A DNA stretch of 61,009 bases from an uncultured bacterium (GCA_964482725.1 CAYZYT010000014.1:1-61009), one strand, 5' to 3'. Positions 23,087 through 58,879 are shown, numbered from the stretch's first letter. Translations and numbers: made by a program. Notes: generated by a model not told the origin, from the sequence alone.

Positions 23087-23162
23087 GGATGGTGGATATC
23101 GGATGGAGGATGGCGAAAAACTAATGGCCAAAACGCCCTCCACCTTCCTCCATCCGCCATCC
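23087..23162. repeat. GGATGG-family palindromic element, intergenic copy
   Basis: GGATGGTGGATATCGGATGGAGGATGGCG-AAAAACTAATGGCCAAAAC-GCCCTCCACCTTCCTCCATCCGCCATCC. Confidence 0.85.
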
Positions 23163-23167
23163 TGCAA

Positions 23168-23674
23168 TTATGTTTTCAAGAAGTACAGCCCCACATAGAC
23201 CTTAGGATCCACGAGGAATCCTTTTTTTTCCATCTCATAAAGCCAAAGATCCGCTTCTTTGAGCGGTATTTCGTGGACCTTGATGGATTCCGTGGCATCT
23301 CCGCCGCCGGGACCTTTTTTGACCACGTCCAGAGCTTGATAGAAGGTGATGATCTCGGAACACAAGCCGCTAGAGACAGGCCCCCCCACTAAAAGCGACC
23401 AGTGTTCCGTTTCATAGCCCGTTTCTTCCAAAAGCTCGCGGCGGGCAGCCGCCTCCATCGTCTCGGGACCATGCGACCTCTTGTCATTCACGAGACCCGC
23501 AGGCCATTCGATCACTTGGGCTTCCACGGGCCTTCGGAACTGTTCGACAAAAACAACCTTCCCCGTTGAGGTCATCGGGACAATGACTACAATACCACTG
23601 CATTGGGTCCGCTTGACATACTCCCAATTGTCTTCGCAGACCAGCTCAAGGAACTTGCCTTTATGAAGGATCAT
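23168..23674 (-). CDS. NUDIX hydrolase (ADP-ribose pyrophosphatase-like)
   Basis: Nudix box GPETMEAAARRELLEETGYE. Confidence 0.85.
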   Translation of the reverse strand: MILHKGKFLELVCEDNWEYVKRTQCSGIVVIVPMTSTGKVVFVEQFRRPVEAQVIEWPAGLVNDKRSHGPETMEAAARRELLEETGYETEHWSLLVGGPVSSGLCSEIITFYQALDVVKKGPGGGDATESIKVHEIPLKEADLWLYEMEKKGFLVDPKVYVGLYFLKT

Positions 23675-23684
23675 GCTTATCCTC

Positions 23685-23714
23685 GAATTTGAGATTTCAA
23701 ATTTGAAATCTAGA
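23685..23714. repeat. Short AT-rich palindrome between the ggt-like and NUDIX genes
   Basis: GAGATTTCAAATTTGAAATCTA. Confidence 0.5.
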
Positions 23715-25404
23715 AGCCAGCGGCTTCTCCGCTCGCGCGGGGATCGCTTTCGCCGTCTATTCTACCAGAACCCTCTTCAAAACAAACCATTTGCGCAAAC
23801 CCGATCGGATCTTCTTTTTCGATATCATGCCCCAAAAGAGCGAGTTTTAGACGTATCATCTCCTGGTCATAAAGTCCGGACTCCATGAGAAGAGTCCTGT
23901 CCCGGACTAAAAGCCTCGGAAATCGAACGGCCCCGGAGCAGGAAGCCGCAAGATCGATCCTTTGAACCAGCACATTTAAAAGCACGGCCGCCGGATCGTC
24001 CGGACCGTAAGCATTTAACACCATCGAGGGCTTCCCGTTTTTAAAAATGAATGTGGGAGCCTCCGGTCCGCGCGGTCTTTGTCCGCCGGAGATCAGTTCC
24101 GATGACTTTGGCTCCTTGACGAACGCGGGATCCGCAGCAAAAGCCGTCAGCAGGTCATTTAAGAAAAACCCGTACCCCGGCACCTTCAGCGCCGAACCAA
24201 ACGCGTCTCCAAGCGTCGCCTCGAGAATTGCGATATTCCCCTGAGGATCCACGACCATGACGGAAGACCCGGCTCGCCTCTTTCCCCTCTCCGGTCCCTC
24301 AATCTTCATTTCCTTTAACTTCAAGACCTGATCGAATTTGATGACGCCTGTCCGGTCTTGCGCCCAGGCCTCCGAAAGAAGTTCCTTAAGAGGGCTATCA
24401 AAAAGGTCCGGATCGGCGACGCCCGATCGATTCGAAAAAGCGATCTTCTGTATTTCTCCGAGAAGATGGTACGTCTCCGGGACTTGCCCAAAGCCGGGAA
24501 TGCCGAAACTGGAAAGGAGGTTGAGCCCGCGAAACAACATCACGCCTCCATCCGCCGGAGGTCCCGCACTGAAAAGATCGTATCCTTGATAAGTGGCATG
24601 GATAGGATCACGCGCCGCGATCGCATAGGCCTCAAGATCCCTCTCGTTCAACAGCCCCGCTCGATAGGTATTCTTGCGAACGGCGCGAGCTATGGTCTTG
24701 GCTATCACCCCGCTGTAAAGAACCTTCGCTCCCTGGGTTTGGATCAGACGGAACGCCTTCGCAAGATCGGGCTGGAAGAACTTTCGTCCTTCTTGGAGAG
24801 GAATGCCGTTCTCAAAAAAAACGGCCTTCTCGGGATCCAAAAGAGTTAACCTCTCCGCATGCTCTTGGATTGCCTTCGCAAGGGCCTCAGACACTTCCGT
24901 CCCCTCTTCCGCCTGACGGATCGCCGGCTCCATCAGCTTCGCGAATGGGAATTTATGCGTCCCGTATTTGGCATGAACCTCTTCGGTTAATTTCAACAGC
25001 CCGGGAACACCGACTGAAAGACCGCCTGTATTCCTCTCCGGCTGATACGGGAGCGGTTTCCCGCTTTCATCGAGGAACATCTTCGGAAAAGCTTTCGCGG
25101 GAGCCTTGACACTACCGTCAAAAGAAAGAATGCGCCGTGTGCCGATATCATAAAAAAGAAAAAGACCGCCCCCGCCAAGCCCAGAAGCTTGCGGCGCGAC
25201 CACGTTGAGCATCCACTGCGCCGTCACGGCCGCGTCCACCGCGTTCCCGCCTTGTTTCAACACTTCCAAGGCGGCTTGTGTCGCACGGGGATCGGAGCTA
25301 ACCACCATGGCTTTTTCGCCCGAAGCGGCCTGAAGGGGGGAGAGAAGACTCAGAGAAAAAAGTGCGAAGGTCCCAAAAAGAACCAGAGAGTTTTTGAAGG
25401 GCAT
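23710..25404 (-). CDS. ggt: Gamma-glutamyltranspeptidase family protein (atypical nucleophile region)
   Basis: Signal peptide, then SSDPRATQAALEVLKQGGNAVDAAV and GLGGGGLFLFYD. GSSVMVVDPQGN occupies the position where the canonical TTH motif is expected. Confidence 0.75.
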   Translation of the reverse strand: MPFKNSLVLFGTFALFSLSLLSPLQAASGEKAMVVSSDPRATQAALEVLKQGGNAVDAAVTAQWMLNVVAPQASGLGGGGLFLFYDIGTRRILSFDGSVKAPAKAFPKMFLDESGKPLPYQPERNTGGLSVGVPGLLKLTEEVHAKYGTHKFPFAKLMEPAIRQAEEGTEVSEALAKAIQEHAERLTLLDPEKAVFFENGIPLQEGRKFFQPDLAKAFRLIQTQGAKVLYSGVIAKTIARAVRKNTYRAGLLNERDLEAYAIAARDPIHATYQGYDLFSAGPPADGGVMLFRGLNLLSSFGIPGFGQVPETYHLLGEIQKIAFSNRSGVADPDLFDSPLKELLSEAWAQDRTGVIKFDQVLKLKEMKIEGPERGKRRAGSSVMVVDPQGNIAILEATLGDAFGSALKVPGYGFFLNDLLTAFAADPAFVKEPKSSELISGGQRPRGPEAPTFIFKNGKPSMVLNAYGPDDPAAVLLNVLVQRIDLAASCSGAVRFPRLLVRDRTLLMESGLYDQEMIRLKLALLGHDIEKEDPIGFAQMVCFEEGSGRIDGESDPRASGEAAGF

Positions 25405-25439
25405 TTTAGAACCTCGGAAATTCCGGAACGCGTAAGTTC

Positions 25440-27199: not shown

Positions 27200-27294
27200 G
27201 AATTTATGAATGCCTTGGCTGATTTGTATAGAGGAAAAAGACAGCGAAGTCTAGCGGCTTTCCCGGACATCGTCAATGAATAAAACAGGATGTC

Positions 27295-27363
27295 GGGTGG
27301 CGGATGATGGATGGCGAAAAACTAATGAGCCAAACACTATCCGCCATCCTCGATCCACCTTCC
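27295..27363. repeat. GGATGG-family palindromic element, intergenic copy
   Basis: GGGTGGCGGATGATGGATGGCG-AAAAACTAATGAGCCAAACACT-ATCCGCCATCCTCGATCCACCTTCC. Confidence 0.85.
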
Positions 27364-27419
27364 TGAAAAAAATGTGTGCGTGTTGCTCCATCGCCGGCAT
27401 CATGGTATCCTTCTGGAGC

Positions 27420-28609: not shown

Positions 28610-28903
28610 ATGGAGATTCTTTACAAGATCAGTTCCTGGGCAGGGGCAATCCTCCCCCTCTTCAATATCCCGCTCATCCTCCGGATCGTCAAAAGAAAAT
28701 CGGCGGATGATATCAGTCTTGTGTGGGTTTTCGGAGTCTGGATCTGTATCCTCCTGATGTCTCCGGCGGCCCTGACCTCGCCGGATTTCGCGTTCCGCGC
28801 TTTCGGCTGGACCAACTTCTTTTTCTTCACCGGCGTTGTTGCCGTGACGGTAAAGTATCATCACAAAATGGGGGGAAAGGGGAACGGTCCCCGGGGAACG
28901 TAA
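28610..28903 (+). CDS. Small 3-TM membrane protein, PQ-loop/SemiSWEET-like
   Basis: It has three hydrophobic helices. LPLFNIPLILRIVKRKSADDISL resembles the PQ-loop motif. Confidence 0.45.
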   Translation: MEILYKISSWAGAILPLFNIPLILRIVKRKSADDISLVWVFGVWICILLMSPAALTSPDFAFRAFGWTNFFFFTGVVAVTVKYHHKMGGKGNGPRGT

Positions 28904-28941
28904 AGCTTTTTCGTTCGCCGTTTCCCGTTCACCGTTACCCG
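28869..28941. repeat. Hairpin element (GGGGAA/AACG words); the left arm encodes the C-terminal tail of the 28610..28903 product
   Basis: GGGGGGAAAGGGGAACGGTCCCCGGGGAACG-TAAAGCTTTTT-CGTTCGCCGTTTCCCGTTCACCGTTACCCG. Confidence 0.5.
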
Positions 28942-29310: not shown

Positions 29311-29316
29311 ACTGCG

Positions 29317-29395
29317 CATGTAGTAGGTCGTATGTCGTTATAACGCCCAACACTTTTGCCACATACTACATACCACCTACGACATACGACATACG
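29317..29395. repeat. Hairpin element, GTATGTCG/GTAGGTCG-word family
   Basis: CATGTAGTAGGTCGTATGTCGT ... ACATACTACATACCACCTACGACATACGACATACG. Confidence 0.7.
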
Positions 29396-29398
29396 TTT

Positions 29399-29998: not shown

Positions 29999-30014
29999 AA
30001 ATCCTTTCGTAAAT

Positions 30015-30090
30015 CGTATGTCGTAGGTCGCATGTAGTATGTAGCAAAATCGTTAAACGCTTTATCGACATACTACAGACCACATACTTG
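30015..30090. repeat. Hairpin element, GTATGTCG/GTAGGTCG-word family
   Basis: CGTATGTCGTAGGTCGCATGTAGTATGTAG ... CGACATACTACAGACCACATACTTG. Confidence 0.7.
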
Positions 30091-30091: not shown

Positions 30092-30997
30092 TTAAACAAA
30101 TTCCAGCTTCACCTTTTTGGGAATAATATCGTGTTCATAAGCCATATCGAGCAACTTCCGGAACCCCGCTTCCCCGTCTTTGCCGATATCAACCGTTCGG
30201 GCATTCACATACATGGCAACGAACCGGTCATTTAAAGCGTCCGAGATCCCGCGGCCGAATTGGCTCGCGTATTCTAGGGCATCCTTCCGATGGTTCAAGG
30301 CATATTCGATGCTTTCTTGAAAGAGTTTGGAGAATGCCGCAATCGTCTCCTGGCCTAAGTCACGCCGAATGATATCGATCCCCAGCGGGAGCGGAAGCTT
30401 CGTCTTTTCATACCACCACTCGCCAAGATCCAAGACTTTCTCTAGCCCATGATCAGCATGCGTGATCTGTCCTTCGTGGATCACGAGCCCAAAATCGGCT
30501 TCGCCGGACTTGACCGCATCAAATATTTTGTCGAAGGGAACAAATATAGCTTCAAAAGACGGGGGAAGGATGGAGGAGGGAGGATGGAGTTCTTGGCTTT
30601 TCGCATAAAGCTGTAAAACAAGATAGGCCGTTGTAAGCTTGCCTGGAATGGCTATCCTTTTTTGAATGATGTCCGGTTTGTCGCCCTCCGCCTTCCCCCA
30701 TCCACCATCCGTTTTTTTCGCTACCAGAATCGGCCCATAATTGTCGCCCACACTCGCCCCTGACCGCATCACGACATATTGATCCGCCAGATAAGCATAC
30801 GCATGGCAGGAAACGGCCGTGACCTCCAGCTCACCTTTCAGCGCACGCTGATTTAGAGATTCGATGTCCTCGATCACATGCTCCACTTTAAAGCCGCGCA
30901 TATCGATCTTCTCATGCGCCAAGGCATAGAACATGAATGCGTCGTCGGGATCAGGACTGTGGCCTATACGGATCGGGATTGTTTTTGACGGAGTCAT
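30092..30997 (-). CDS. mqnD: Menaquinone (futalosine pathway) MqnA/MqnD-family protein, MqnD-like
   Basis: IGHSPDPDDAFMFYALAHEKID, IAIPGKLTTAYLVLQLY, VIHEGQITHADHGL, LDLGEWWYEKTKLPLPLG. Confidence 0.7.
   Translation of the reverse strand: MTPSKTIPIRIGHSPDPDDAFMFYALAHEKIDMRGFKVEHVIEDIESLNQRALKGELEVTAVSCHAYAYLADQYVVMRSGASVGDNYGPILVAKKTDGGWGKAEGDKPDIIQKRIAIPGKLTTAYLVLQLYAKSQELHPPSSILPPSFEAIFVPFDKIFDAVKSGEADFGLVIHEGQITHADHGLEKVLDLGEWWYEKTKLPLPLGIDIIRRDLGQETIAAFSKLFQESIEYALNHRKDALEYASQFGRGISDALNDRFVAMYVNARTVDIGKDGEAGFRKLLDMAYEHDIIPKKVKLEFV
30561..30589. repeat. GGATGG-family arm inside the mqnD-like gene (encodes LHPPSSILPPS)
   Basis: GGGGGAAGGATGGAGGAGGGAGGATGGAG. Confidence 0.6.
30683..30711. 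repeat. GGATGG-family complementary arm inside the mqnD-like gene (encodes DGGWGKAEG)
   Basis: GCCCTCCGCCTTCCCCCATCCACCATCCG. Confidence 0.6.
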
Positions 30998-31026: not shown

Positions 31027-31096
31027 CCGCGGGAAACGGGAAACGCGGAACGATAAACGGCTTGCGTTCACCGTTAACCGAGAAACGCTCCCCGTG
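31027..31096. repeat. Imperfect hairpin element (GGAAACG words) just downstream of the giant gene's stop
   Basis: CCGCGGGAAACGGGAAACGCGGAACGATAAACGG-CTTG-CGTTCACCGTTAACCGAGAAACGCTCCCCGTGG. Confidence 0.5.
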
Positions 31097-31105: not shown

Positions 31106-34100
31106 TTACGCAGAACGCGCCGTCGCAAGATACTGATCGCGCATTTGCGTGACGATCTCGCTGACACCGGCGACGTTCAGGAAGCGTTGGAATCTCTCCG
31201 GCGTCACGATCGCATCTCCGTACGTTTTGAGAAGCTCGGCCGCCTGCAAGCTCTTCTCCCCGAAATAAACCATCGCTTTGACATTCAACGTCCCGGCGCC
31301 GGAATTGCGGCTACGGACGGCCTTGCCAAGAAGGCTTCTTGCTTCATCCAGACCGCTCGCGGGCAGCAGGAGCGGCCGGTTCGCTTGACGGAGCTGCCCA
31401 TTGATCTTCTCGAGAAAACTCCGGTCCGCTTCATTGCGTACCAGGACAGCGACCGGCACATCTCCGAGGATCTTCCGGATCACAAGCGCCGCGCCGTGCT
31501 CGATGGCAAATTCGGGGGCAAGCACCAGCACATCGGACGCCGTCAGAGTCTTGTCGCGGAGGAGGACCTTCGCGGCATCGGCAAAACGCTTCTGTTCCTG
31601 AGCGGTTGCTGGCACCGCCAGGTTAAACGCTTCCTGGGCAAAGGCCGTCGGAACAAGGGCGTTGATAACAAGTGTCACAACTGTCGCATCAAAAGTGTAC
31701 GGCACGAGCGAAATGATCCCGTCCGTGATCTTTTCCGTCACGCCGCGGAACCCTTGCATCGTCCCGCCGCCAAGACGCACATTTTCCTCGATGAACGATT
31801 GCACAGTGTAGGTCGTATTCCGTATTCCTTTTTTCGAACCCGTTGAACGTTGCCCATTGACCGAAATCCGACGGACTTCCGCTCGACCTTGGACAGGCTG
31901 AGTGATTTTGATTTCATCCACAACCCTGGCATTCAGTTCTTTTTCCAGAAGTTTCACAATCGTACGGATCTGTTCGATGTTTTTAGCAAGGAGATTTCCA
32001 GAAGCGAGCGGCTGTTCGGCCCGGAGTTTCAAGATCCGCTCCGGCGAAATCTCAAGATCGACCGAGATGGCATTTTTCAGCTGCGTTAAAAGGCCCTCAG
32101 ACCCATCCACAAAGAGTACTCCCAGGCTTGTGGAAGACACGAAGGAAAGCCGCGTCTTGATCCCGGGAGCGCCCTGCGGGAAAGGAGTTCCCTCATCTCC
32201 GATCTCCTGTACCCCGAACGGCCTGAGAAACTCTGCGCGGGTCTTTTCATCTTTATTTCCACGCACTTCCGCGCGAGAAGGGCGCACGGGCCGGAGGGCT
32301 TTGCTGATGCGCAAAGCCTCCTTGGCGATCGCCTCGGATTTAGCGTGAAGCCGAAGCCCGATCAACTGGCCGATCACATACGTCGCAAGGGCTGGATTGG
32401 CCTTGGAAGCTTCAATCAATTGATCATTTTCGGCCGTGGCGATCACTCCGTCGCGGAGCGCCTTCAGCGTCCCCCGGGCAGACGCTTTGAGCGCCTCAAA
32501 GGTTGCAGCCCGCACTTCGGAGCGAGCGCTCTCATTACCCGAGCCTTCGACGAGAGGGTTCCCAAGACGCACCGGCCGTATTTCCAGAATCTGAAATCGG
32601 TAATTATGTTGATCGATCCCGGAGCGATCCTTCTGGGCCAGGAGCGGAATACCCATATGCCATTTTTCACGATAAAGTTTTTCCCCTGAAGGAACCGCTG
32701 GATAAAAATATCCCAAAAGATAATCAAAAACCTGGTATTCGGCATCCTGAGAGTTTTGGATCCCGAGATTCTGAACATCGAGAAGCCGGAACCATGCTTT
32801 TCCGTCTGCGGGGTCATACGGCCCTTCCGAAAAATGGATCGGGACCACCATGTGGGGCATGGGCTTCCCCGGCAGACTTCTTGAGATGATCATGGCGCTT
32901 TCACGATCCACGCGGTGGAACCAAACCTTCCCTTCAGAAAAAAGACTCTTTAAAACAGGGAGATGGACGATCGCCTCTAATCTAGTATAGACATCTTCAT
33001 TCCAGGGCCTCATTTTTGAGAGAAGCGCCGGGGAAAGCACGGTCACAAAAGCCATCACGGCGGGCACGCCTCCCGGGCTGAAACGCGCCTCAGCCTGTTC
33101 TTTGGAAAGGCCGGCCACAACGCTTAACAATCTCTCCAGACGCTCCGGAGACTCGAGACCTTCTTTGATCTTTTGGGACAAGAGTCCGGTCACAGGTTTC
33201 CCTTCACTTACAAACCGCCCGCGGGTTAACGCTTCGAGGTAACTCAAGATATCATTTTTCAGCCTTGTCTCTTTTTCTTCAGATTTTGTCCCCGTGTCCA
33301 CCAACCGAAGAATCTGAACGCCCGGGAAAGGCACTCCGACCGAGGTCGTTTCCATCATTTTCCAAAGAGCCTGGTTTCCGTACCCCTCCCTTGTGATCAC
33401 ATTTCTTAATTCATAGATGCGGGCATCTTCCAAAATCGCTTGATCCCCCAAGATCTCCGCGAAGGCTTCGCGCCCATAGAAAGCACCCCAGGCCTTTTCC
33501 GCTCGCTCCGCGCCGTAACCGAATTCTCCGAGATTGAGCGCCACCATGTACTTCTGGCCCTTCACATCCACGGCATAACCCTGGACCTTCTTTGTGATCG
33601 AATCAAAAGGAACCGCGGTCGAATCAAAATGACGGGCAAGATTCTCGCGAACTACCGGCTGGTTGAGGATCGTCTCGAGTCCAAGATCCTGTGTTTCAAC
33701 ATAATTGTTAAACAGCGCCACCGAAACCTGGACCGTAAGCTTTTCAATGATCTCGAGCGCCTCAAGGTTCCACTGGATCTTTTCGTAGACGCTCTCTGCG
33801 GCTTGGGCGCGCCGGTCAAGCTCCTGGATCTTTGTGATCACAGGGGCCAGCGGCACATCAAACCCCGATAGAAATTCGTTCAGATAGGCAAAAAGATCCC
33901 CTTGCTTGACATGATGCGCGAGACTTAAAAAACCTTCTTTTTCTTTCATCCGGATCTCGCGGAAACCTTCGACGAAACCCAGAATGCCGCGCAGACGTCG
34001 CCCGGCCGACAAGGGTTGAGAATCATCGTCTTTCAGCCAGGTAAATTCCGGTCCCCGTGAGGCTAAAGACTTTGAAAGAAATGCTTTCACCTCGTCCGGA

Positions 34101-46100: not shown

Positions 46101-49100
46101 CCGTAAACCTGGTCCGCGAAATAAACCTGTTTTGATTTGTCATTCTTCAAGGCCGCCCACAAATCCTGGATGCGCTCTTCGGTAAGATGGGTCCGTTCCA
46201 TGAATTCAGCAGCAGAAATAATGGGGATACCGCGCCCCTGCACCTTCGGAAGATTTTCTTCGAGCTCTTTTTTCGCCGGCGCGGGAAGCTCGGCCTCGAG
46301 GCCCTCCAGCCCCTTCATTGCGGCATAATGCATGGCGCTGTAGTGCCGGCTCAGAAGCCCGAGACGCGCGACATCGCTGCCGTCCCAAACCATGATCTCC
46401 TGCGCAGCCAATTTCCACGGATCCGCGATCGCAAGTTCCAGCACTTTGGTCACCGTCTGAAGCGTAAAAGGGCCGTTGCCGGGCTTAAAAAGAAGTTCTC
46501 CGCCAAAGCCGCTTCCGGGACGGTTCGTCACGGGGATCCCCTGGGTCGGCGCTTCGCGCTTTTGAGCCTCGAGGATCCTGGCGGCAATCGCCGGGATCTC
46601 CGCGCGATAAGCCGCGTCATTAAACCTCAGTTCCGAGCGACCGACGAATTTCTGATGGTTCGTAAGCGCGCTTTTGTACACATCCATATACTCGGGAACG
46701 ATCTCTTCCCATGAGCGAACAGACTCCATCGCTCTTTTTTGCATTCTTCCGAAACCTTCGGGATCACGTTCGTAGCGATTTACAGCCCGCGCCGTTGCCA
46801 GATAAAGATCGTCGCTCAAATCGATACGATCCATATCTCCCTGGCTCACTCCTTTGAGATAACCAAAACGGAAACCCGTGCTTTTCCCAGGGAATTCATC
46901 CGGATCCACCACCGTGTCATGAAGACCGCCCGTTGCCCGAACCACAGGGACAACGCCATAACGCTTCATTTGCTGCTGAATAAGTCCGGCAGGCTCGAAC
47001 CGCGAAGGAACAAGTCCGATATCGGCCGCGGCGAGCGTTTCTCGTACGATCGGAGCCCCCATCACCGGGATAAATTTGAATCTCCCGGGAAATTCCCTTT
47101 CTAATTCATAAAATCTTTCTTCCAAATCCCTGTCGCCGGTACCCACAACCGCTAAAAACGCGCCCAATCCGCCTTCACTTTCTTTTCTGACAATGCGCGC
47201 CGCTGCGCTGACGACCCAATCCATCCCTTTCTGCTGACGAAGGCGGGAAACCGCCACGATAAGAGGTGCCCGGAGGTATTCGGCCTTATAATCTTTTTCG
47301 TTTTTGTCGAAAAAATGTCTTTTAAGAAATTGCTCTTTATTGACCTGCTTGGGTGAAAGATCCTGTAAAGAATAGGTGGCCTGAATGTCCGCAAGGCTTT
47401 CGGGATTCCAAAGATTCGCATCCAGAGCATTCAGGATCCCCACATAATTTTCACCGCGGCTTCGCAACGCCCCGTCAAGGCCGAAACCTCCCGCCGGAGT
47501 CAGTGTTTGATCCCGAAAAGATTTGCTAACCGTAATGATCTTATCCGCAAAAACAATGCCCCCTTTAGCAAGGTTCGCCTGGCCGTGGAATTCTAACCCT
47601 CCCAGAGGATTCAGCTCGCGCCACGGGATCCCCATCCCCGCCAGCTGCCAGCCCCGTTCATGCATCGGATAGCGAAGCTGATACGCATCTCCAAGATTGT
47701 GGACCGTATAAACGGTTGCCGCATCATGGAACTGGTGATCTTTCACAAACCGCATGAACGGGATCACGAGTGCCGTCTGAGCATCATGGGCCTGAACAAT
47801 ATTAGGACGAAGCTTAAGAAGATCCATCGCCTCGACGGCGGCCCTGGAAAAAGCGGCAGCTTCCCAAAAGGTATCCGCCTCTTTTTCGTTATACCCGTGC
47901 CTGAAATATTGGGCGATCCGTATAAAATAGATCGTCACATGTTCCAGCTCGGCCTTAAAAACCTCACAGGGAAGATCTCCGGCGCTCGTGGGAATCTTGA
48001 AAGCCAGGATCGGTTTATTTTGAACAGGGGTCTTCTGTTGAACCCAAATATTGGCATGTTCCGGGAGAATCACGGAAACATGCATTCCCTCATGCATGCG
48101 CTTGATCGCGGGGACAAATTCACGAAGAACGTCTTTCACACCCCCTGCTTCAAAAAAGGGCGCCATCTCATACGCCACGTGAACGATCCTCTTGATTTCG
48201 CCGGTTTCCACTGCCCTGACTTCCGAGCGGCGGAGGTCTTCGGTCTTGAGTGTTTCCAGGACCTGAGCCTCTGACATAAAAGAGCGGATCATTTCCGGAG
48301 CAACGCTCAGTCCGCCTGCCTGTTCCTGAACCGGCAGATGAAAGAATTGATCGCCCCGCCCGGCATGTGCCGACCAGGCATACCGACCGTTTTTATAGGA
48401 AAAAATAAATTGAAGGCTTTTGGGGGCATCCAGAGATACACCGACTGTCACAATGCGCTCACCGGCGCTTGCTCCGGATATGAAAATATTTTCAGGTTTA
48501 ATGCCCCAGGGCTTCTCGAGAACGCCTCTGAGCTTCTCCGCCGCTTCATCCAGCCTCATTGAAGCCTCGGCGAGGCTCACATCATCCGTCGTCGATACCG
48601 CTTCAACAGAATGCCAGTGTTCGAGTCTTGCTTCGATCTCTTCAATGGCGGCTTCCGGGGACAGAACGGACGGGATCAGGCCCGCATAAGACGTGGGGTT
48701 ATTTTTCAGTTCTGCGACCAGCGTCCGAAAAAGAGCCGGGTGACGTTTGATCTGACGATCCAGCCCGAATCCCGGCGTCCCGAAAGAAATAATCGTTCTC
48801 AAATCCTCAAAAAACTTTTGATCGAACTGCACCTCCGGCCAAGAGAGGTCTTCCGTCCCTCTCACTTCCGAACGACCATCCAGAAAATCGCGAACCTCTT
48901 CTTTGTACTCGACGGCTCTCGCTGCATCCTGCCGTCTTTCTTTCATAAATTGAGGGAATTGCTCGAAAAAAAACGCCGGCCCTGCCATTTTCAGGCGTGA
49001 ATATTCATTCCTGAGCCTGGACAATAAATCCTGGGCGCGCTCCCAACGGTGCGTTTCATGCCGCAAAACATTCCTTTTCTTATTTGCTCGCCGCCGCGAG

Positions 49101-52100
49101 TACTCACGTTCCAAGCTTTTCGTTAATTGCTCTAAATGAGTAATGCGCAACCAGTAACCAGTCCGGGCGGCTAACCATGGAAGGCCCAACGCCGCGGCTT
49201 TAAATAGCTCCCGCAGTTCCGAACGAAAGCGCTTGGCTTCGTAAGCGGCGGCCGCGGCAAAGGCGAGCATATTTTCCGGCGTGGTGTCGATATCGCAGCT
49301 CGAGCAGAAGATAAAAGGCCGTTTCCCCATGATCCTGAAGATCCATTGAGCGTCGTGCCTTATGACCTTGGGATGTTCGCTGGGAAGGATGCTCAGCGTG
49401 TCCATATTCCCCAAAATGACGGGCCTGCGCTCATGGAGCTGAGTGTCTTGAACGGCATCGTAAACCTCGGGAAGAAGATAGATGCTGTCCACGCTCAGGA
49501 TATCCACATCATACCGGACCATATAAGGAAGCTTCTTCTCCGCATCATCAGGGCTTTGGGGACGGCAGGGGTGGGCGGCCGAAAGGGCTCCCAGATGACG
49601 GACCTCTCGCGAAAGACGGTTCACCGGGTCCACGGAATATTTCAAAAATTGCTCCGGGCTGAGCATGCCCGTGGGCCGAGGATCCAGAAATACCACGATG
49701 TCCGCTCCGCCTTCTTTGATGAGCCGCTCCACGTTCGCCGCGATCAGGCGCTCCGAGTATTGGAAGAGCGCCTGGAACATCTTGACGCCCTCGTCGTCTT
49801 TAATGCCGTCTTCGCGATCCATCATGGCCAACATTGCCTCACTATCTCCCATCAGGAACGCGGCTAGCGTGTAAGGCGCGATCGAATAGGCGATCTTGGG
49901 CGTATTGGCGCCAGCCTTCGCATCCAGCTTCTTCAAAGTTTCAACCGCCAAACCAAGACGGCCGGTCGTAGCAGGATCCACATCCTTGAGCGAATGCCAA
50001 TCGATCCCCGCAGCCGAAAGCGTCATGTGGAGCTGAGGACTTGCGACAAGTTCTTGGAGCGCGATCAGAGTTTCCTTGCCGTTCACCGTATGGATCTTGC
50101 CCGAAGCCGTCCATTCCGCGCGTTTTTCAGGCGGAAGATTCGCAAGGATCACGGCTTCATGTTCGGCGCTAAGATCCATCATCGCGGGGATGGTCTTTGC
50201 CCCGTATTTTTTGATCGCCCAGGCAAGTACCGCAGCTTGCGTGTCCGGATTTGTCGCGGCCTCTTCGATCGAAACTTGTTCTTTATGCTCCGCGTTATAA
50301 AGTTTCACGGCCGCGAACCCCAAAAGCGGCACGAACGCGCGGGCGGCGGCCATCTTTTCCAGCGCCGCCCGTCTCGTTTCGTACATTTCGCGGATTTCGG
50401 AACGCGAGCCAGAGGCTTTTTCAGCCGCTGCGCGGGCCTGCCTCACGGCGCGGAGCGAAGCGATTGTGATAGGCGTCGCAAAGGATGGGAGCAAGAGAAG
50501 CGCGCGCGTAAGCATCGCATGATGCTGCACATCCGGGAACGCCCACTTGACTGAAGTATAGAGCGCGATCCAGAGAAGGACCGCGGGAACAAAGCTGACC
50601 ATAAAAATATTAAAATAATGGCCAGAAAGATCCCGGATCCCGGGTTTGCGCACCGCTCCGGCCTTCTCACCCCTCACCTCGGAACGGGCCGTTCTTGAAA
50701 TCCATCGTTCGACCGATTCCTGGACGATGGCGTTCCGGTCCTCGGGCGTATTTTGAAGCACACGCTTGAAAGCAGAAAGTCTTTCTGAGGTGTAGGCGCC
50801 GATCGATGCGAGGAAATCAAAACGGTCATTTTCGTCCGGAAGAAGCTTGGCAAGCTCCGGACTGTAAAAACCAAAGCCGGCATTCCGGGCCATAAATTCG
50901 TGTCCGACAAGGAAATCCCCGCCCTTAAGAAAATCCTCTCCGACCTCACGGTTGTAGGACGCCCCGGCGGTTGCAAGGACACCGGGCAATTCCACAAGCC
51001 CCTTCTCTTCGAGGAACGGCATATCGGGTTTGTTGATATCCACGCCGCTGAAAACACGAAGGCCGTATTGTTTCGCAAGAGCAACGACTTTGACGATCTC
51101 TTCATCGCTATTGCGGTGCGGCATGATCGCGATCCCCGGCACGCCGATCTCGACAAGATATTTGAAAAGCGATTCGAGATGGTCTTCTTCATTGGTTTTA
51201 GAACCTTTGGAATCCCCAAGATACGGATAGATCGGGATCCCACCCGCTTTTTTGATGATCTCAACGACCGTTTTCATGCTCGGAGATTCTTCGGCATCCG
51301 GCGCGATAAAACAGGAAAGTTTTGCCGAGGGTTTCAGAAACGCACCCCGGAGGATCTCCATCGGAACATCAATGTCGCCGGCTTTATACCCCGCTACCGC
51401 CTTGGCGGCCAAAACCTCATCGCCCAGGATCTCTTTATAGAAGGAGATGTTATCGCCGAGCCGGTACGCCACGCCGGCCATAAGATGCCGGTCCGTGGTG
51501 TTCCGGTCCTGGACCTGGAGTTTCGCTTCTTCAAGGATATTTTTGTCATAGTCCACACTCACAGAAATGCCGAGATCTTTCAGCTTTTGGTTCACTTTAC
51601 TGATCATGGCACGATTCCGGCGCTCTTTCGACTCGCGGACTTTGCGGAGAAGCTCCCGGATCAGCGGATGGCTCGTATCGGGCAAAGCATGGCAAAGAAA
51701 ATAGATCATGTTGGGAACGCCCGGCGCATTCCAGATAAGGTTCCGGAAAATTTCCGGGGCTTCCTCGCCAAAACTGACCCGCATCTCGAACCCGGATGTT
51801 TTTTTCATCCCGAGAATTTCGGCGGCTTCGAGGAAATCTTGGTTCCCGGCGGCGGTGTCATGATCGATGATCCCGCCGTTCCGCAGCCCTGCACGGAACA
51901 AGCGGTAGGCGATCTCTTCAGGATAATACGGGCTGTAGGAGAATTTGCTGTGGACGTGAACATTGTTGTTCTTGGAAGCGGGCGCCATAGAGATTTCGCC
52001 CCGTTCTGCCATGATCGCCAGCGCCTGAAGCGCATCCTGGCGAACGGCTTTGGAAGGATCGCGCAGCTTTTTTTCGAGTTCGTTCTGATGAGGAGTCGCG

Positions 52101-55100: not shown

Positions 55101-55759
55101 GCCGTGAGCTTGCGGTTGCTGAAAACGGTCCGGTAAGCTTCGCGGCCTTCTCTGTATTCTTTCGAATTTTCGACGCCCCAACCTTCGGCTGAGGATATCG
55201 GATGGAGGATGGAGGATGACGTTTTGGCTTTTACGCCCTCCGCCCTCCGCCCTCCGCCCTCCTGATTTATAAGAAACGCTTCGACGCCCGTGAGCTCTCC
55301 GGCCTGCATAAGCTTGCCGTTTACAAGCTTCTGGAGTGCGGCGTCCCTGGGGAAAAAATTAAAAAGTTCTGGCTGCAGCTTGTTACCCGCGCCTTCCAAA
55401 AGGATCAGCTTTACACCGTAATTTTTGGAGAGATGTTCGAGGATATTCTTGATGTTTGTTTGCGCGTCATAATTCGCGTGGGCTTCCTGGATGTGAATTA
55501 AAACCTGACCGCCGGATGACGGAGGGAGGATGGCGGAGGGCGTAGAAGCAGGAATGAGGTCGGTGACTTTGCCGAGCTCCGCGGGGATCTTGAAGGAAGA
55601 GACAAGTGACGGGAGCTCCGCGTTTGCAGCCTGAGCGATCGGGGCAGGAGAAAGCGTGTTGGTCACAAAGAAAGTGACGATAATAATACTCGAAAAAAAT
55701 CGCTGTAATCGCTTGAGGCGGCTCATGAAATGAATGTTTTCCCTTTCGGAATTATTCAT
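31106..55759 (-). CDS. Giant 8,217-aa membrane-anchored multi-enzyme protein, with modules separated by R-[S/A]-E-x-R junctions
   Basis: This is a single uninterrupted ORF of 24,654 nt, and all the domain signatures listed below lie in this one frame. An alternative start at M12 (55726) gives a signal-peptide-like N-terminus: [35 protein letters not shown]. Confidence 0.9.
   Translation of the reverse strand: [8217 protein letters not shown]
31109..31870 (-). other. Giant protein aa 7964-8217: C-terminal module, possibly related to the C-terminal half of 56037..58250
   Basis: Weak collinearity: [35 protein letters not shown] compared with AMLVSSAGILARMLSEEKTARLLQEAVGEGAIVALAQD. Confidence 0.25.
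34160..36334 (-). other. Giant protein aa 6476-7200: GT35 alpha-glucan phosphorylase-like module
   Basis: [107 protein letters not shown]. Confidence 0.6.
36755..37507 (-). other. Giant protein aa 6085-6335: protein-kinase-like module (atypical)
   Basis: QVFVLKIY (beta3 Lys), [15 protein letters not shown] (hinge), [13 protein letters not shown] (catalytic loop without HR), VVLIDY (in place of DFG). Confidence 0.5.
38108..39562 (-). other. Giant protein aa 5400-5884: UDP-sugar pyrophosphorylase (UDPGP/UAP family) module
   Basis: [79 protein letters not shown]. Confidence 0.7.
39851..40321 (-). other. Giant protein aa 5147-5303: split TM pair enclosing a ~110-aa loop module
   Basis: [23 protein letters not shown] ... 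RSEAR ... [24 protein letters not shown]. Confidence 0.6.
40385..41182 (-). other. Giant protein aa 4860-5125: NDK-like module 2
   Basis: [57 protein letters not shown]. Confidence 0.45.
41510..41668 (-). other. Giant protein aa 4698-4750: TM hairpin 3
   Basis: [23 protein letters not shown] and [23 protein letters not shown]. Confidence 0.7.
43040..43552 (-). other. Giant protein aa 4070-4240: class I SAM-dependent methyltransferase module
   Basis: [46 protein letters not shown]. Confidence 0.75.
44030..44692 (-). other. Giant protein aa 3690-3910: P-loop kinase module (uridine kinase/PRK-like)
   Basis: Walker A [17 protein letters not shown], and LLVDGKYAL. Confidence 0.6.
44810..45457 (-). 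other. Giant protein aa 3435-3650: NadD/cytidylyltransferase-like nucleotidyltransferase module
   Basis: [34 protein letters not shown], a variant of the GxFxPxHxGH motif. Confidence 0.45.
45740..46522 (-). other. Giant protein aa 3080-3340: NDK-like module 1
   Basis: [12 protein letters not shown]..., [27 protein letters not shown]; paralogous to aa 4860-5125. Confidence 0.45.
46640..48214 (-). other. Giant protein aa 2516-3040: GT5 glycogen/starch synthase module
   Basis: [94 protein letters not shown]. Confidence 0.85.
49235..50242 (-). other. Giant protein aa 1840-2175: uroporphyrinogen-decarboxylase (URO-D)/MtaA-like barrel module
   Basis: [80 protein letters not shown]. Confidence 0.55.
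50405..50671 (-). other. Giant protein aa 1697-1785: TM hairpin 2, bracketed by RSEVR and RSEIR
   Basis: [20 protein letters not shown] and [21 protein letters not shown]. Confidence 0.6.
51020..51976 (-). other. Giant protein aa 1262-1580: PHP-domain phosphoesterase module
   Basis: [40 protein letters not shown]; later IAIMPHRN and VFSGVDIN. Confidence 0.6.
52424..52639 (-). other. Giant protein aa 1041-1112: TM hairpin 1, bracketed by RSEMR and RSEVR
   Basis: [22 protein letters not shown] and [16 protein letters not shown]. Confidence 0.7.
53354..53854 (-). repeat. Giant protein aa 636-802: internal tandem duplication (2 x ~78 aa, helical HEAT-like)
   Basis: [47 protein letters not shown] compared with [47 protein letters not shown]. 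Confidence 0.8.
55193..55262. repeat. GGATGG-family palindromic element inserted in-frame in the giant gene (aa 167-190, [24 protein letters not shown])
   Basis: GGATATCGGATGGAGGATGGAGGATGACG-TTTTGGCTTTTAC-GCCCTCCGCCCTCCGCCCTCCGCCCTCC. The paralog lacks these ~24 aa at the aligned position. Confidence 0.8.
55512..55542. repeat. GGATGG-family half-element in the giant gene (aa 73-83, [11 protein letters not shown])
   Basis: CCGGATGACGGAGGGAGGATGGCGGAGGGCG. Confidence 0.55.
55622..55726 (-). other. Giant protein: signal-peptide or signal-anchor segment (aa 12-46)
   Basis: Basic n-region RLKRLQR, hydrophobic [12 protein letters not shown], and an AQA-A site. Confidence 0.6.
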
Positions 55760-55958: not shown

Positions 55959-56036
55959 TATAGCATAGTCCACTTCGGACTAGGATTCCGAGGCCTGGGC
56001 ATGAAGTAAATGTTTTGACACTCGGAGCAAGTAAAA

Positions 56037-58250
56037 ATGGCTGGCTTTCCGGCGAAAAAATTCATTACCGTCTCTATTTTACTGACCCTCACGCTCGCCA
56101 CCGCCCCGCTCGCTTTCACATCCGAAGTTCTTTCGACTAACACCGGGGATTCCCTCACATTATCGAATCTTGCAGTCCCTGAAGAGCTCGGAAAGGTTCA
56201 AGAACGCTTCGCCTCCAACCCTGCCGGAAGCAATCTCCGAACGATCATTCAGATCCAGGATGTTCATGCACACGCCACAGCCCAACAAAACATCGCTGCC
56301 CTTCTGGAACGTCTTCGTGCCGTGTTCGGTATAGAGAAGGTCGCACTCGAAGGAGCTTGGGCCACGACTTCCTTGCCCCAAAGCCATGCCATCCCAACTT
56401 CGCGCGAAAAACAGCTTCTCGCCAGAACGCTGCTGGAGGATGACCAGATCTCAGGCCCGGTCTATGCCGCGATTATGTCTCCCGATCCGATCACGCTCAT
56501 CGGGATCGAAGACGAAGCGGCTTATGAAAAAAACAGGGCCCTTTTCCTGGTCCACCTCGGAAAAGCCAAAGAAATCGAGGAAAAACTAAAGCTCTATGAA
56601 ACTTCCCTGAAAGAGACTCAAAGATCGACCTGGGGTCCGGACCTTTTAGCCTTTGGAAGCGCCTTCGGAATATTCCGGGACACTTCCGATCTTGGGAAAT
56701 TCTTCCCGATCCTTTGGACGGCTGCCGAGACACAAAGCATTGATACTTCCGACCTCAGTCAGATCCTTCTGCTGCAAAACATCCTTTCTCTGGAGAAGCT
56801 TTTTCAGAAGGAGCGCCTGGAGCAGGAGGTGAAGCAAGTGATGCGGGATTACAAGAACACTCCCTGGACGCTAGAAGAGCTGATCCGAGGAGGCAAGATC
56901 CCAACCGAAAAGCTCGGCTCTTATCCTGAAATCAAGAAACTGACTCAGCTTTACAAAATGCGCGACCAAATCTCTCTCAGCGATCTAACAACCCAGATCG
57001 AGACCTTGACCGGTCGCATCCTCGAGAAACTTGTCCGCACTCCGGCTGAAATCGCCCTATGGGAGAAAGTTGAAAGGCTCTTCCTCGCGCGCCGCATTCT
57101 TCTGCTGCAAGCATCCCCCGAGGACATGAAAGCCTTCGAAAATGAAAAAACCTCCCTTGCGCCGGAACTCGCTATCACCGGGCTTTCCGAGGCCCTTGCC
57201 GTATCGCTTGATTTTTACGCGGGGGTGAAAAGCCGTGATGAGATCTTTTTCAACAAAGTGATGAACGACCCCGCTCTGTCCGGCAATATCGCGATCGTCA
57301 CGGGCGGCTTCCACACGGACGGGCTTTCCCAGCGCTTCCGCGATGCAGGGATCTCCTATATCACGATCACTCCCGAGCTCGGCGGCACGGCCATGAATCA
57401 AAAACTTTATAACGCCAGGATGATGGATGGTGGATGGCGGATGGCGGCAAACGAGAAACCCGAAACGCCATCCTCCATCCTCCCTCCGTCTTCCGAGTCA
57501 TCAACATTGTCAGAACTCCGGAACGCCATCGCCTGGATCGACGACCGATTTCCAGAAAGTTATGAGGTTTTGCTGCAAACCAAAGATGTCCGGAAAGCTG
57601 CGGCTGTTTTTACGGGAAGCCCGGTCGCCCTATCAAGGTCCGCCAAGGCCTCTCATCTTTCTAGGAAAGGAAGGATCGATCTCGAGACGAAAAAAGGAAC
57701 CGCGGTCAAAGCCTCGGAGTTGCAGGTCAGTGAGTTTATGGTAAAACCCCGCCCGGAACAGCTAAGCGCCGTCCAGGCATGGTTAACACAGGGATCGAAG
57801 GGTCGGGAAAAAGCGATGTTGGTTTCTTCGGCCGGCATCCTCGCGCGGATGCTTTCAGAAGAAAAAACCGCGCGGCTTCTTCAGGAAGCTGTCGGCGAAG
57901 GCGCTATCGTAGCGCTGGCTCAGGATATCCCGGCGGTAGACATGCCAAAGTTTCTTTCTTCTCTGCGCGGGATCAATTGGTTTGAAGCCACGGACATCGC
58001 AACGCTGGTTGAAAAAACGCCGCGCTTCCAGAGGCTTGCAAAAAAGCACCCTTTTGCGATCATGGAGAATGGTCGCCCCATGGGGGCCTACGTTGTCCTG
58101 CCGGAAAAACCTATCTCCCTTGTCCTCTTCAGAATCATCACGCTGAATCCCAACCTCTACCAGGCCGCCAAAGACCCCGCCTTCCTGGCCCTGCTTGAGG
58201 ATCTCGTGTCTGAGATTTTGTCGAAGGAACTTTCCGCAAAAGCCGCTTAA
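56037..58250 (+). CDS. 737-aa secreted or anchored paralog of the giant protein's N-terminal module (erythromycin-esterase/ChaN/Tiki-like suspected), plus an LSELR junction and a C-terminal domain
   Basis: Signal-like N-terminus KKFITVSILLTLTLATAPLAFT. IQIQDVHAHATAQQNI, EKVALEGAW and VTGGFHTDGLSQRFRDAGISYITITPEL are collinear with giant aa ~45-560. Confidence 0.85.
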   Translation: MAGFPAKKFITVSILLTLTLATAPLAFTSEVLSTNTGDSLTLSNLAVPEELGKVQERFASNPAGSNLRTIIQIQDVHAHATAQQNIAALLERLRAVFGIEKVALEGAWATTSLPQSHAIPTSREKQLLARTLLEDDQISGPVYAAIMSPDPITLIGIEDEAAYEKNRALFLVHLGKAKEIEEKLKLYETSLKETQRSTWGPDLLAFGSAFGIFRDTSDLGKFFPILWTAAETQSIDTSDLSQILLLQNILSLEKLFQKERLEQEVKQVMRDYKNTPWTLEELIRGGKIPTEKLGSYPEIKKLTQLYKMRDQISLSDLTTQIETLTGRILEKLVRTPAEIALWEKVERLFLARRILLLQASPEDMKAFENEKTSLAPELAITGLSEALAVSLDFYAGVKSRDEIFFNKVMNDPALSGNIAIVTGGFHTDGLSQRFRDAGISYITITPELGGTAMNQKLYNARMMDGGWRMAANEKPETPSSILPPSSESSTLSELRNAIAWIDDRFPESYEVLLQTKDVRKAAAVFTGSPVALSRSAKASHLSRKGRIDLETKKGTAVKASELQVSEFMVKPRPEQLSAVQAWLTQGSKGREKAMLVSSAGILARMLSEEKTARLLQEAVGEGAIVALAQDIPAVDMPKFLSSLRGINWFEATDIATLVEKTPRFQRLAKKHPFAIMENGRPMGAYVVLPEKPISLVLFRIITLNPNLYQAAKDPAFLALLEDLVSEILSKELSAKAA
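57418..57494. repeat. GGATGG-family palindromic element inserted in-frame in 56037..58250 (aa 461-486, RMMDGGWRMAANEKPETPSSILPPSS)
   Basis: GGATGATGGATGGTGGATGGCGGATGGCG-GCAAACGAGAAACCCGAAAC-GCCATCCTCCATCCTCCCTCCGTCTTCC. The giant paralog lacks the insert at the aligned position. Confidence 0.8.
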
Positions 58251-58261
58251 AAACAGGGGGG

Positions 58262-58359
58262 GGACGGATATCGGAGGGAGGATGGCATTCAACTCTTTGT
58301 TTTTCGCTTTCAGTTAGTCCGCTTTTAGTTGCTCCCTCCACCATCCGTCATCCGCCATC
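58262..58359. repeat. GGATGG-family palindromic element with a long loop; the right arm overlaps the last codons of 58348..58797
   Basis: GGACGGATATCGGAGGGAGGATGGC ... GCTCCCTCCACCATCCGTCATCCGCCATC. Confidence 0.75.
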
Positions 58360-58797
58360 TTGTTTCTCGGCGAGATCTTTCCAATTGGCGAGGGTGTTTT
58401 CGAAGCTTTGGTCGAGGATATTCTTGACCTTTTGTTCTCCCAGGAGCATGCCCGCGATCCCGAGGTCCCAGGAGACTTCGACCGCGACCTCAACACCCTC
58501 AGGCTTCTCATGAAAGAAGTGCGTTCGCGTCATCGAGCCGTTCATGGGAAGCGCGCTTTGAATCACAGCCCGGCTCATGGGCTCCCAAACGGTCATTTCC
58601 TGTTCGACTTCGATGTGCTGACGGTCCAAGACACAGGCCTCATGCCAACGCAGGCCTTTCCCTTCACGAACCGTTCCGGTCCGTTCGCTTTCCTTGACGC
58701 CGTCCACCCATTCGGACATTCGCGCCACGTCGGCGAGAATGCCCCATACTTTTTCGAGCGGTGCGCGGATCAATATGTTTTTAGTGAGTGTATTCAT
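58348..58797 (-). CDS. SRPBCC (START/polyketide cyclase-like) family protein
   Basis: NILIRAPLEKVWGILADVARMSEWVDGV, typical of the family's N-terminus; size ~150 aa. Confidence 0.7.
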   Translation of the reverse strand: MNTLTKNILIRAPLEKVWGILADVARMSEWVDGVKESERTGTVREGKGLRWHEACVLDRQHIEVEQEMTVWEPMSRAVIQSALPMNGSMTRTHFFHEKPEGVEVAVEVSWDLGIAGMLLGEQKVKNILDQSFENTLANWKDLAEKQDGG

Positions 58798-58805
58798 TTT
58801 TTCCC

Positions 58806-58879
58806 GATGGGATATCGGATAGTGGATGGAGGATGGCGAAAAACTGGTTGCTCCATCTTCCCTCCGCCTTCCGCCATCC
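58806..58879. repeat. GGATGG-family palindromic element, intergenic, abutting the xth stop codon
   Basis: GATGGGATATCGGATAGTGGATGGAGGATGGCG-AAAAACTGGTTG-CTCCATCTTCCCTCCGCCTTCCGCCATCC. Confidence 0.85.

Follow-up and report, generated by a model that had tools for sequence, protein, structure and literature searches.

A GGATGG palindromic element of Omnitrophota as one family of heptamer-arm hairpins, found between genes and in frame within them

Introduction

A stretch of 61,009 nucleotides from an uncultured bacterium (GCA_964482725.1, CAYZYT010000014.1:1-61009; the whole stretch is called the window below) contains a palindromic element made of GGATGG words, which lies between genes and also, in frame, inside protein-coding sequences. 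What kind of repeat is this, how did its copies come to stand in coding sequences, and what becomes of them in related genomes? A description made from the sequence alone (the original prediction) had likened the element to the Rickettsia palindromic elements (RPEs) and placed it in a different lineage. The analysis presented here indicates that it is probably a non-autonomous palindromic repeat, similar to repetitive extragenic palindromic (REP) sequences and RPEs and built from heptamers. It is one family within a general class of hairpins with heptamer arms, a class that is not specific to one lineage.

Results

The element is a hairpin with arms of four heptamers

All the copies listed in the original prediction were found on inspection of the sequence and with probe matches, with two corrections to their limits: the second copy starts at 27288 rather than 27295, and the fourth extends over about 58256-58360. 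The three-unit probe GGATGGNGGATGGNGGATGG (20 nt, at most 3 mismatches) gave 30 matches in the window, compared with 0.06 +/- 0.24 in shuffled sequences. These were confined to 23087-23162, 27288-27363, 30568-30587, 30684-30710, 55193-55262, 55514-55540, 57418-57494, 58266-58360, and 58810-58879. Since all 30 matches fall inside the nine places already listed, the first list of copies was complete at the sensitivity of this probe. The bare hexamer GGATGG was only mildly enriched (60 occurrences versus 42.9 +/- 6.8), and the family was also recovered independently by a repeat finder. Six copies are full, two of them coding; the coding set further comprises one half copy and one split pair, and all of these are read in frame (Table 1).

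What had escaped the first description is that each arm is an array of four tandem 7-nt units. The first arm is followed by a loop of about 14-21 nt and then by four complementary heptamers, for an element of about 78 nt. Period-7 self-similarity was the sole short period enriched in the window (18 runs, versus none for periods 4-6 and 8-12). The arm reads CAGGATGGC-GGATGGC-GGATGGC-GGATGGC, the loop G-AAAAAC...AAC-G, and the complementary units finish with an ATCCTG end; the unit order GGATATC-GGATGGA-GGATGGC is common to the copies of the window. We aligned 23 copies from 15 contigs belonging to 14 Omnitrophota-type assemblies, the window included. They stayed in register with 4+4 units, no variation in arm length, a related loop, and common termini (consensus CnGGATGGC GGAnGGC GGATGGC GGATGGC G-AAAAAC...AAC-G CCATCC TCCATCC nCCATCC GnCATCC). 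The coding copies, which come from the giant protein and its neighbour described below, from MqnD of the syntenic locus L007, and from valyl-tRNA synthetase (ValRS) and PriA, could not be distinguished from the intergenic ones in this alignment. The copies would have been made from other copies, by copying from a master sequence, and not grown in place, because the unit order, the loop, the termini, and the fixed size are shared within and across Omnitrophota genomes.

The RNA folds of the six full copies, computed on single sequences, ranged from -33 to -46 kcal/mol (z -3.3 to -6.0). In the consensus fold, the GGA/UCC and GG/CC blocks were paired and unit positions 4 and 7 were variable. There was almost no covariation in the 23-copy alignment because the paired columns are invariant, so that the hairpin is backed by energy and not by compensatory change. 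In many aligned copies, such as the one at 55190-55265 of the window, one arm is of the GGATGG type and the other is the complement of GGAGGG; heptamer position 4 is therefore systematically mismatched in the hairpin. The palindrome was found to be regularly imperfect in several genomes. The seventh, variable position is often mismatched in the stems of the window hairpins, but we dropped the idea of an untemplated seventh base because, in a set of 105 GGATGG-type hairpins of various phyla (among the matches listed in the cross-phylum search described below), 79% of cases had a Watson-Crick pair at this position. The fixed polarity (G-rich arm always 5') was rejected as a clue to mechanism because a palindromic element reads the same on both strands and any copy inherits its polarity.

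Two individual copies deserve mention. The copy at 23085-23164 has an orthologous counterpart of the same family, with a similar loop, in L007. In the copy at 58256-58360, the right arm forms the end of the SRPBCC gene, three codons (DGG) followed by the TGA stop, and the loop (58290-58335) contains CGCTTT-type words that resemble one arm of the TAAGCG family present at 21800-21882. One family may be nested inside another at this place.

Heptamer hairpins are concentrated between genes

Among the 27 spacers of at least 30 nt in the window (3.3 kb in total), 11 contain a heptamer hairpin, while the 56.5 kb of coding DNA contain two full copies, one split pair, and two or three half copies. The density is thus about 3.4 hairpins per kb in intergenic DNA versus about 0.05 per kb in coding DNA. 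Copies would accumulate in short spacers at gene ends, where the transcript would fold into a stable hairpin. Within genes, selective filtering would let a copy survive only if its length keeps the frame, if its word is free of stop codons in the frame that is read, and if the site is a tolerant loop or linker.

The coding copies are insertions into loops

The peptides quoted earlier for the three host proteins were retrieved exactly: EGGGRRAEGVKAKTSSSILHPISS at aa 167-190 and STPSAILPPSS at aa 73-83 of the giant protein, RMMDGGWRMAANEKPETPSSILPPSS at aa 461-486 of the neighbouring protein, and, in the mqnD-like gene product, DGGWGKAEG (site 1) and LHPPSSILPPS (site 2), which lie on either side of IAIPGKLTTAYLVLQLY, a conserved 25-aa segment. 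The giant N-terminus and the neighbouring protein had been taken as paralogs that could serve as internal controls, and they are indeed related (BLASTP E = 3e-12, 22% identity over about 550 aa). No Pfam match was found in the first 1000 aa of the giant protein. The two genes are divergently paired, and this pair, together with the downstream mqnD gene, was syntenic in all the relatives compared, in which the giant genes encode 3903-10040 aa.

The homologs of MqnD and of the neighbouring protein all came from metagenome-assembled genomes of Candidatus Omnitrophota. Eight orthologs of the neighbouring protein have no insert, ...RMxE running directly into ...QTLSELRN, and most of the others have a hairpin-derived peptide at this site, from the GGATGG family or from other families. 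A search with the giant protein returned only four matches; one ortholog (P0230) is without an insert at the aa 167 site, and the aa 73-83 segment is missing from P0227-P0230. MqnD matches Pfam VitK2_biosynth from end to end (E = 4.7e-74) and the PDB entry 1zbm (E = 8e-73), and its alignments with 1zbm and 2czl are gapped exactly at sites 1 and 2. About 20 of 120 Omnitrophota MqnD orthologs have nothing at site 2. Orthologs or solved homologs lacking the inserts were thus found for all three proteins.

In an AlphaFold2 model of MqnD (mean predicted local distance difference test score, pLDDT, 81.9), the score was below 50 at aa 99-105 and 140-143. Both inserts were modelled as coil, one between strands 88-94 and 114-117 and the other between helix 123-135 and strand 149-152, in keeping with the earlier expectation that inserts would lie in loops. 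The coding copies are insertions into loops rather than ancestral linkers, because the PDB homologs and many orthologs lack them and the MqnD inserts are predicted to be low-pLDDT coil. An ancestral low-complexity linker is ruled out by the insert-free homologs and by DNA of the same family as the intergenic copies, a family that recurs in other Omnitrophota contigs. An assembly artefact is ruled out by the presence of the same architecture in independent assemblies.

Sites are kept and sequences are replaced in relatives

We compared eight syntenic loci from relatives. Period 7 was uniquely enriched in them too, each with its own dominant word: GGATGGC in L001, GCCACAA and GAGACTG in L003/L197, GTACGGC in L005, GGGACTC in L006, and CGCAACG plus GGATGGC in L007, while L008 had almost none (one period-7 run in 20.8 kb). 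In three orthologous spacers (after the mqnD stop, between the NUDIX and ArsC genes, and upstream of the transketolase promoter), most genomes had a hairpin, each with the local word.

Over about 10 kb, the window shares 85-86% identity with its closest relative (L003/L197). At eight full-hairpin sites, the identity was 30-44% and the family was different, with most flanks at about 80-90%; at one further site (29315-29398) the family was kept, with 57% identity. The site that corresponds to aa ~166-190 of the giant protein is occupied in this relative by a GAGACTG-type hairpin, and those at 58256-58360 and 58806-58880 by GCCACAA-type hairpins. The solitary arms were conserved between the two genomes (29/33 positions, 88%, for giant aa 73-83, and 35/36, 97%, for MqnD site 2). 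At MqnD site 1, the relative has GCCACAA-type arms around what appears to be the tail of the old insert (EGGGKP versus EGDKP). None of the sites shared by the window and this relative was empty. Identical contigs from different samples (L001/L002 and L003/L004) showed no polymorphism.

These comparisons suggest that existing hairpin sites would be re-used: at a given position, related genomes have hairpins of whichever heptamer family dominates in each of them, so that positions would be stable while the sequences are replaced. The notion of an RPE-like element in another lineage held in all the tests that were run, as coding and intergenic copies form a single family of about 78 nt and insert-free homologs exist. 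It needs amending in that the element belongs to a class not specific to one lineage, and in that insertion did not happen just once, the sites being re-used.

In L005, the arrays at 10457-10487, 13769-13798, and 15896-15929 mix GCCGTAC and GCCTTCC units. The words GTACGG, GGAAGG, GGATGG, and GTATGT differ from one another at one or two positions (G-K-A-N-G-K-N); therefore, gradual change, and not replacement, may link some of the families.

The two arms in MqnD enclose a conserved segment

A single contiguous insertion cannot produce the split arms of MqnD, which lie on either side of a conserved segment. The arm at site 2 was the complementary one in all nine genomes compared at the DNA level that carry the site 2 insert. 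Predicted folds of the mRNA segment paired the two arms across a loop of about 100 nt (z -2.4 for the window and -3.3 for L006), and this long-range stem was found in both the minimum free energy and the centroid folds. RNA duplex energies were discarded as a test of the complementarity between sites 1 and 2 because G-rich arms pair with any C-rich arm; ungapped Watson-Crick matching separated the families better, with shuffled sequences as a weak control. A scan for MqnD in metagenomes gave mostly relatives with about 50% identity, likely from other phyla, and the three that were examined had no insert at site 2; it thus contributed little on covariation.

Heptamer hairpins occur in many phyla

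We searched 596 Gb for the pattern GGATGGNGGAKGG-N10-40-CCHTCCNCCHTCC, for which about 2 occurrences are expected by chance (an estimate), and found matches in at least 108 stretches. The groups among the matches listed were Gemmatimonadota, Acidobacteriota, Planctomycetota, Verrucomicrobiota, Chloroflexota, Alphaproteobacteria, and Bacteroidota, as well as a genome of the candidate phyla radiation. In the loci among the matches listed, period 7 accounted for 294 runs, versus at most 59 for any other period, and 46 of 101 hairpins lay inside stop-free open reading frames (ORFs) of at least 250 codons. Genes confirmed with Pfam that contain an in-frame hairpin with GGATGG words encode RecG, DnaE (twice), a polysaccharide synthesis enzyme, a nonribosomal peptide synthetase, a hydantoinase A/B fusion, ValRS, and PriA; in several phyla, housekeeping enzymes thus tolerate the hairpin. 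The number of units varies in the arrays of other phyla.

Possible origin and turnover of the copies

Several observations weigh against the reading as a repeat similar to REPs and RPEs. A Pfam scan of the window ORFs found no gene for a transposase, a REP-associated tyrosine transposase (RAYT), or a reverse transcriptase, and inspection of the flanks of the six full copies revealed no target-site duplication. No pair of empty and filled sites was found between very close relatives, so that mobility was not directly seen. The translation of the inserts into G/W/R/D-rich and S/I/L/H/P-rich peptides is deduced from intact reading frames only, which would be expected to yield junction-spanning peptides such as LYNARMMDGGWR and SSILPPSSESSTLSELR. 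Simple random insertion followed by selection does not readily account for three features: about nine hairpin sites are all occupied in both of two close relatives, mostly by different families; the solitary arms are not replaced; and sites 1 and 2 of MqnD, on either side of the conserved segment, belong to the same family (GGATGG, GTACGG, GGGACTC, CGCAACG, or GGGGAAC) in 6-7 of the 9 genomes compared at the DNA level. Site-conserved replacement and the immunity of solitary arms point to a step that recognises hairpins, though with 11 sites such a step is not established.

One specific, and new, mechanism for this turnover would be that a process recognises the structure of pre-existing hairpins, even of those with arms about 100 nt apart, and overwrites their arms with the active heptamer family of the genome. 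An element that homes into hairpins could do this, as could the synthesis of heptamer arrays from a template; the positions would be inherited and the sequences rewritten. We regard this as unlikely on present data. It would account for the replacement of 8 of 9 full hairpins while 2 of 2 solitary arms were conserved between close relatives, and for the absence of any shared site that is empty in either genome. It agrees also with the GCCACAA-type arms around a GGATGG remnant at MqnD site 1 of the closest relative, with the apparent TAAGCG-family remnant arm in the 58256-58360 loop, and with the MqnD arms, which pair in predicted folds and match each other in family for four or five heptamer families that are unrelated. 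However, the contrast between full and half copies comes from 11 sites (Fisher p ~0.055, hand calculation), L003 and L201 have mismatched families at MqnD sites 1 and 2, no candidate enzyme or template was found, and the remnant assignments are short and possibly due to chance. Furthermore, frequent insertion, together with selection for hairpins at gene ends, could look like the conservation of sites. The broader proposition that in many phyla heptamer hairpins are written and not merely inserted, both arms being replaced (even around essential coding sequence, as in MqnD) and unpaired half-arms left alone, is put forward as an unlikely one. If true, structure-guided writing would add a new type of system, mobile or templated, in many bacterial phyla, and it would account for the long-noted excess of heptamer repeats in bacteria.

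It is quite improbable that the hairpins are instead selected structural modules, kept for protection of mRNA 3' ends or termination, gene insulation, translation pausing, or G-quadruplex formation, with their family resemblance being secondary. Such a role would agree with the presence of hairpins at the same gene ends in genomes with unrelated hairpin sequences, with the very stable folds, and with the T runs (U runs on the mRNA strand) that follow the stem of a few heptamer hairpins, e.g. at 23085-23164 and 29315-29398. The heptamer repeats of Xanthomonas are transcribed and lie about 28 nt past stop codons (PMC4692102). Yet several relatives, L008 among them, have no hairpin at sites that are filled elsewhere, and the coding copies sit in loops of unrelated proteins whose orthologs do without them. 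A terminator scan flagged 32 sites in the window, no excess over shuffled sequences (24.8 +/- 4.5), and none of them was a heptamer hairpin; canonical intrinsic terminators, with a short GC-rich stem, a loop of 3-8 nt, and a T run, were therefore set aside. An Rfam scan of the window at the gathering score matched only 5S and 23S rRNA, with nothing at E <= 1 in 27150-27450. G-quadruplexes are ruled out as a general explanation by word composition, because most window families have no G runs (GTATGTC, CGCAACG, and GAGACTG, for example) and GGATGG has only GG tracts. A purely functional reading as terminator or G-quadruplex thus fails the tests that were run, the terminator scan and the word composition of the families.

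Growth in place, through local polymerase slippage of a 7-nt unit with complementarity created by template switching at quasi-palindromes and likeness due to a shared mutational bias, would fit with the variable unit number in other phyla but is very hard to reconcile with the fixed 4+4 size, the specific order of variant units, and the likeness in loop and termini, all shared between loci and between genomes, with the coexistence of at least six unrelated heptamer families in one 61-kb window, and with the wholesale differences per site, not in unit number, between close relatives.

Relation to known repeats

RPEs (Ogata et al. 2000) are the classic in-frame palindromic repeats, with a length of about 150 bp (PMC10969869). 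In the RPE accounts consulted, they resemble the GGATGG family in lying between genes and in frame in unrelated functional protein genes, with the peptide in tolerated parts, and in forming several families per genome. They differ, according to the same accounts, in being found as ten families in Rickettsia only and in not being described as tandem heptamers (PMC10969869), whereas the GGATGG element has about 78 bp, 4+4 heptamers, and an Omnitrophota host; nor do these accounts describe replacement at conserved sites, as seen here for heptamer hairpins. By length and by host the element falls outside the RPEs, from which it is set apart by description and not by sequence alignment.

In enterobacteria, REPs have species-specific consensus sequences at shared intergenic sites. 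REPs, bacterial interspersed mosaic elements (BIMEs), and REPINs are short imperfect palindromes at gene ends that form species-specific families, some of them in frame, and the GGATGG element shares the location in gene-end spacers. Intragenic REPs with GTAG or CGTC tags are known from several phyla, in frame in known proteins, some of which serve DNA synthesis or DNA repair (Di Nocera et al. 2013, PMC3733652). The GGATGG element has no GTAG or CGTC tag, and its termini are CAGGAT...ATCCTG (C-n-GGAT...ATCC-n-n in the alignment). Its arms are 28-nt tandem heptamers, compared with a REP stem of 5-13 bp, and no RAYT gene accompanies it in the window.

Heptameric simple sequence repeats (SSRs) are closer in their building blocks. 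Xanthomonas genomes contain about 185 GGGAATC heptamer repeats each, with four units preferred and 70-75 inverted pairs (Rehm et al. 2015, PMC4692102). They lie at a mean of 28 nt from the upstream ORF, 7-11% being intragenic, and the same genes flank them in two species, where their length and sequence differ (PMC4692102). In the view of Rehm et al. (2015, PMC4692102), they form G-quadruplexes; their function was left open. Like the SSRs of Xanthomonas and Nostoc (GGGAATC / GGGGAYT; PMC4692102) and the heptamers of cyanobacterial short tandemly repeated repetitive (STRR) sequences, the window arrays consist of 7-nt units in tandem, in which one or two positions vary. The GGATGG element likewise has two or more tandem units, four being the modal number, and inverted pairs near the upstream stop codon. 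It lacks the four tracts of three or more Gs that could form a G-quadruplex, since GGATGGN has only GG; the sister families GTATGTC, GAGACTG, TAAGCGN, and CGTTGCG have no G runs. Moreover, the known SSRs were read as one word per genome, whereas the window has many unrelated words, in discrete hairpins with family-specific loops, and in-frame copies and replacement of families are documented here.

Miniature inverted-repeat transposable elements, or MITEs, are small, non-coding, multi-copy elements of 70-300 bp with terminal inverted repeats, occasionally in frame in genes, and the GGATGG element has these properties. It differs from them in having no target-site duplications and no matching insertion sequence in the window, and in being almost wholly an inverted repeat. 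In the Omnitrophota literature, we found no mention of these hairpin, palindrome, or heptamer repeats.

Other features of the window

At least six families of heptamer-arm hairpins coexist in the window (Table 1). The NUDIX, ArsC-like, M24 peptidase, SRPBCC, and exonuclease III-like neighbour genes each have a Pfam match. As called, the radical-SAM gene (12059-13813) has 64 nt (12059-12122) in common with the HI0933-like gene (10842-12122). A solitary array lies in this overlap, and the HI0933 Pfam domain does not begin before aa 35 of the protein. Either the start of the HI0933-like gene is mis-called, or one protein takes its tail, or the other its N-terminus, from the repeat arm.

About 85 nt upstream of the gene for the transketolase N-subunit (27200-27280 and the equivalents in L003 and L005-L008) are almost invariant, though the proteins of these genomes are only about 70-85% identical. 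The region has a promoter-like TTGACG-17-TAGACT at 27276-27248 and the leader TCGCTGTCTTTTTCCTCTATACAAAT, and it could be a conserved leader or regulatory RNA. In L007 (~13990-14105), an insertion of about 115 nt with the terminal inverted repeats GGTCATTGCGAG...CTCGCGATGAC lies inside the transketolase leader; it is not built from heptamers and seems to be an element of its own, similar to a MITE. A small stand-alone GIY-YIG nuclease gene (28954-29310, plus strand) stands at the same position in every syntenic relative, with heptamer hairpins on both sides.

A 258-nt direct repeat (1-258 and 1906-2163, 92% identity) flanks a gene for a GLUG-motif protein (319-1932), and each of its copies contains an ORF of 76 aa that begins like a signal peptide and has a tail rich in Thr (MRSPIKIFFALAGLVLLITASAYAGKVELTTYYPSPNGEY...). 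The right edge of the window has a 5S rRNA gene (60545-60661, minus strand) and the 3' end of a 23S rRNA (60834-61009, minus strand).

Table 1. Heptamer-arm hairpins, solitary arms, and host genes in the window (energies in kcal/mol)
Coordinates	Strand	Feature	Context	Fold or pairing
23085..23164		Full GGATGG copy, 4+4 heptamers, loop GAAAAACTAATGGCCAAAAC	Spacer, NUDIX gene stop to ArsC-like gene start	-42.3, z -5.6
27286..27365		Full GGATGG copy	Between divergent PepM24 and transketolase genes; adjoins conserved transketolase promoter	-36.2, z -6.0
55190..55265	-	Full GGATGG copy	Translated in giant protein, aa ~166-190	z -3.4
55513..55545	-	Half GGATGG copy (one arm)	Translated in giant protein, aa 73-83	86% complementary to 55227-55262
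57416..57496	+	Full GGATGG copy	Translated in 737-aa paralog, aa 461-486	-46, z -5.9
58256..58360		Full GGATGG copy, long 46-nt loop	Neighbour-gene stop to SRPBCC gene stop	z -3.3
58806..58880		Full GGATGG copy	Exonuclease III-like gene stop to SRPBCC gene start	z -3.4
30557..30592	-	Solitary arm, C-rich on sense strand	MqnD site 2 (LHPPSSILPPS)	
30680..30712	-	Arm, G-rich on sense strand	MqnD site 1 (DGGWGKAEG)	Pairs with site 2 arm across conserved segment
30092..30997	-	mqnD-like gene (1,4-dihydroxy-6-naphthoate synthase family)	Contains the split arms	
31106..55759	-	Giant ORF, 8217 aa	Contains a full and a half copy near N-terminus	
56037..58250	+	737-aa paralog of giant N-terminus	Host of one full copy	
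12070..12111	-	Solitary CGTTGCG x4 array	Overlap of radical-SAM gene end and HI0933-like gene start	
14696..14731		Short CGGGGAA-type hairpin, 2+2 units	Between convergent genes	
16541..16625		GAGACTN / NAGTCTC family hairpin	Between thyA and folA	-39.1, z -6.9
21800..21882		TAAGCGN family hairpin		z -2.6
28871..28941		GGGGAAC / GTTCCCC-type hairpin		No better than shuffles, z -0.8
29315..29398		GTATGTN / NACATAC family hairpin	Between convergent genes	z -3.0
30008..30090		GTATGTN family hairpin	mqnD stop to next gene	z -3.8
31029..31095		CGGGAAA-type hairpin	Giant gene stop to mqnD start	

Significance

Three separate strands meet in these hairpins: translated palindromes (RPEs and intragenic REPs), species-specific hairpins at gene ends (REPs), and the unexplained excess of heptamers in bacteria. 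For annotation, this means that segments of the GGW...SSILHPPSS type, when met in proteins of uncultured bacteria, are inserts derived from repeats and not domains. The syntenic Omnitrophota loci are a natural series for dating and dissecting the turnover of the hairpins and for correlating it with candidate enzymes. The main value of the finding lies in this pattern of turnover, in the split arms of MqnD, and in a reach across phyla.

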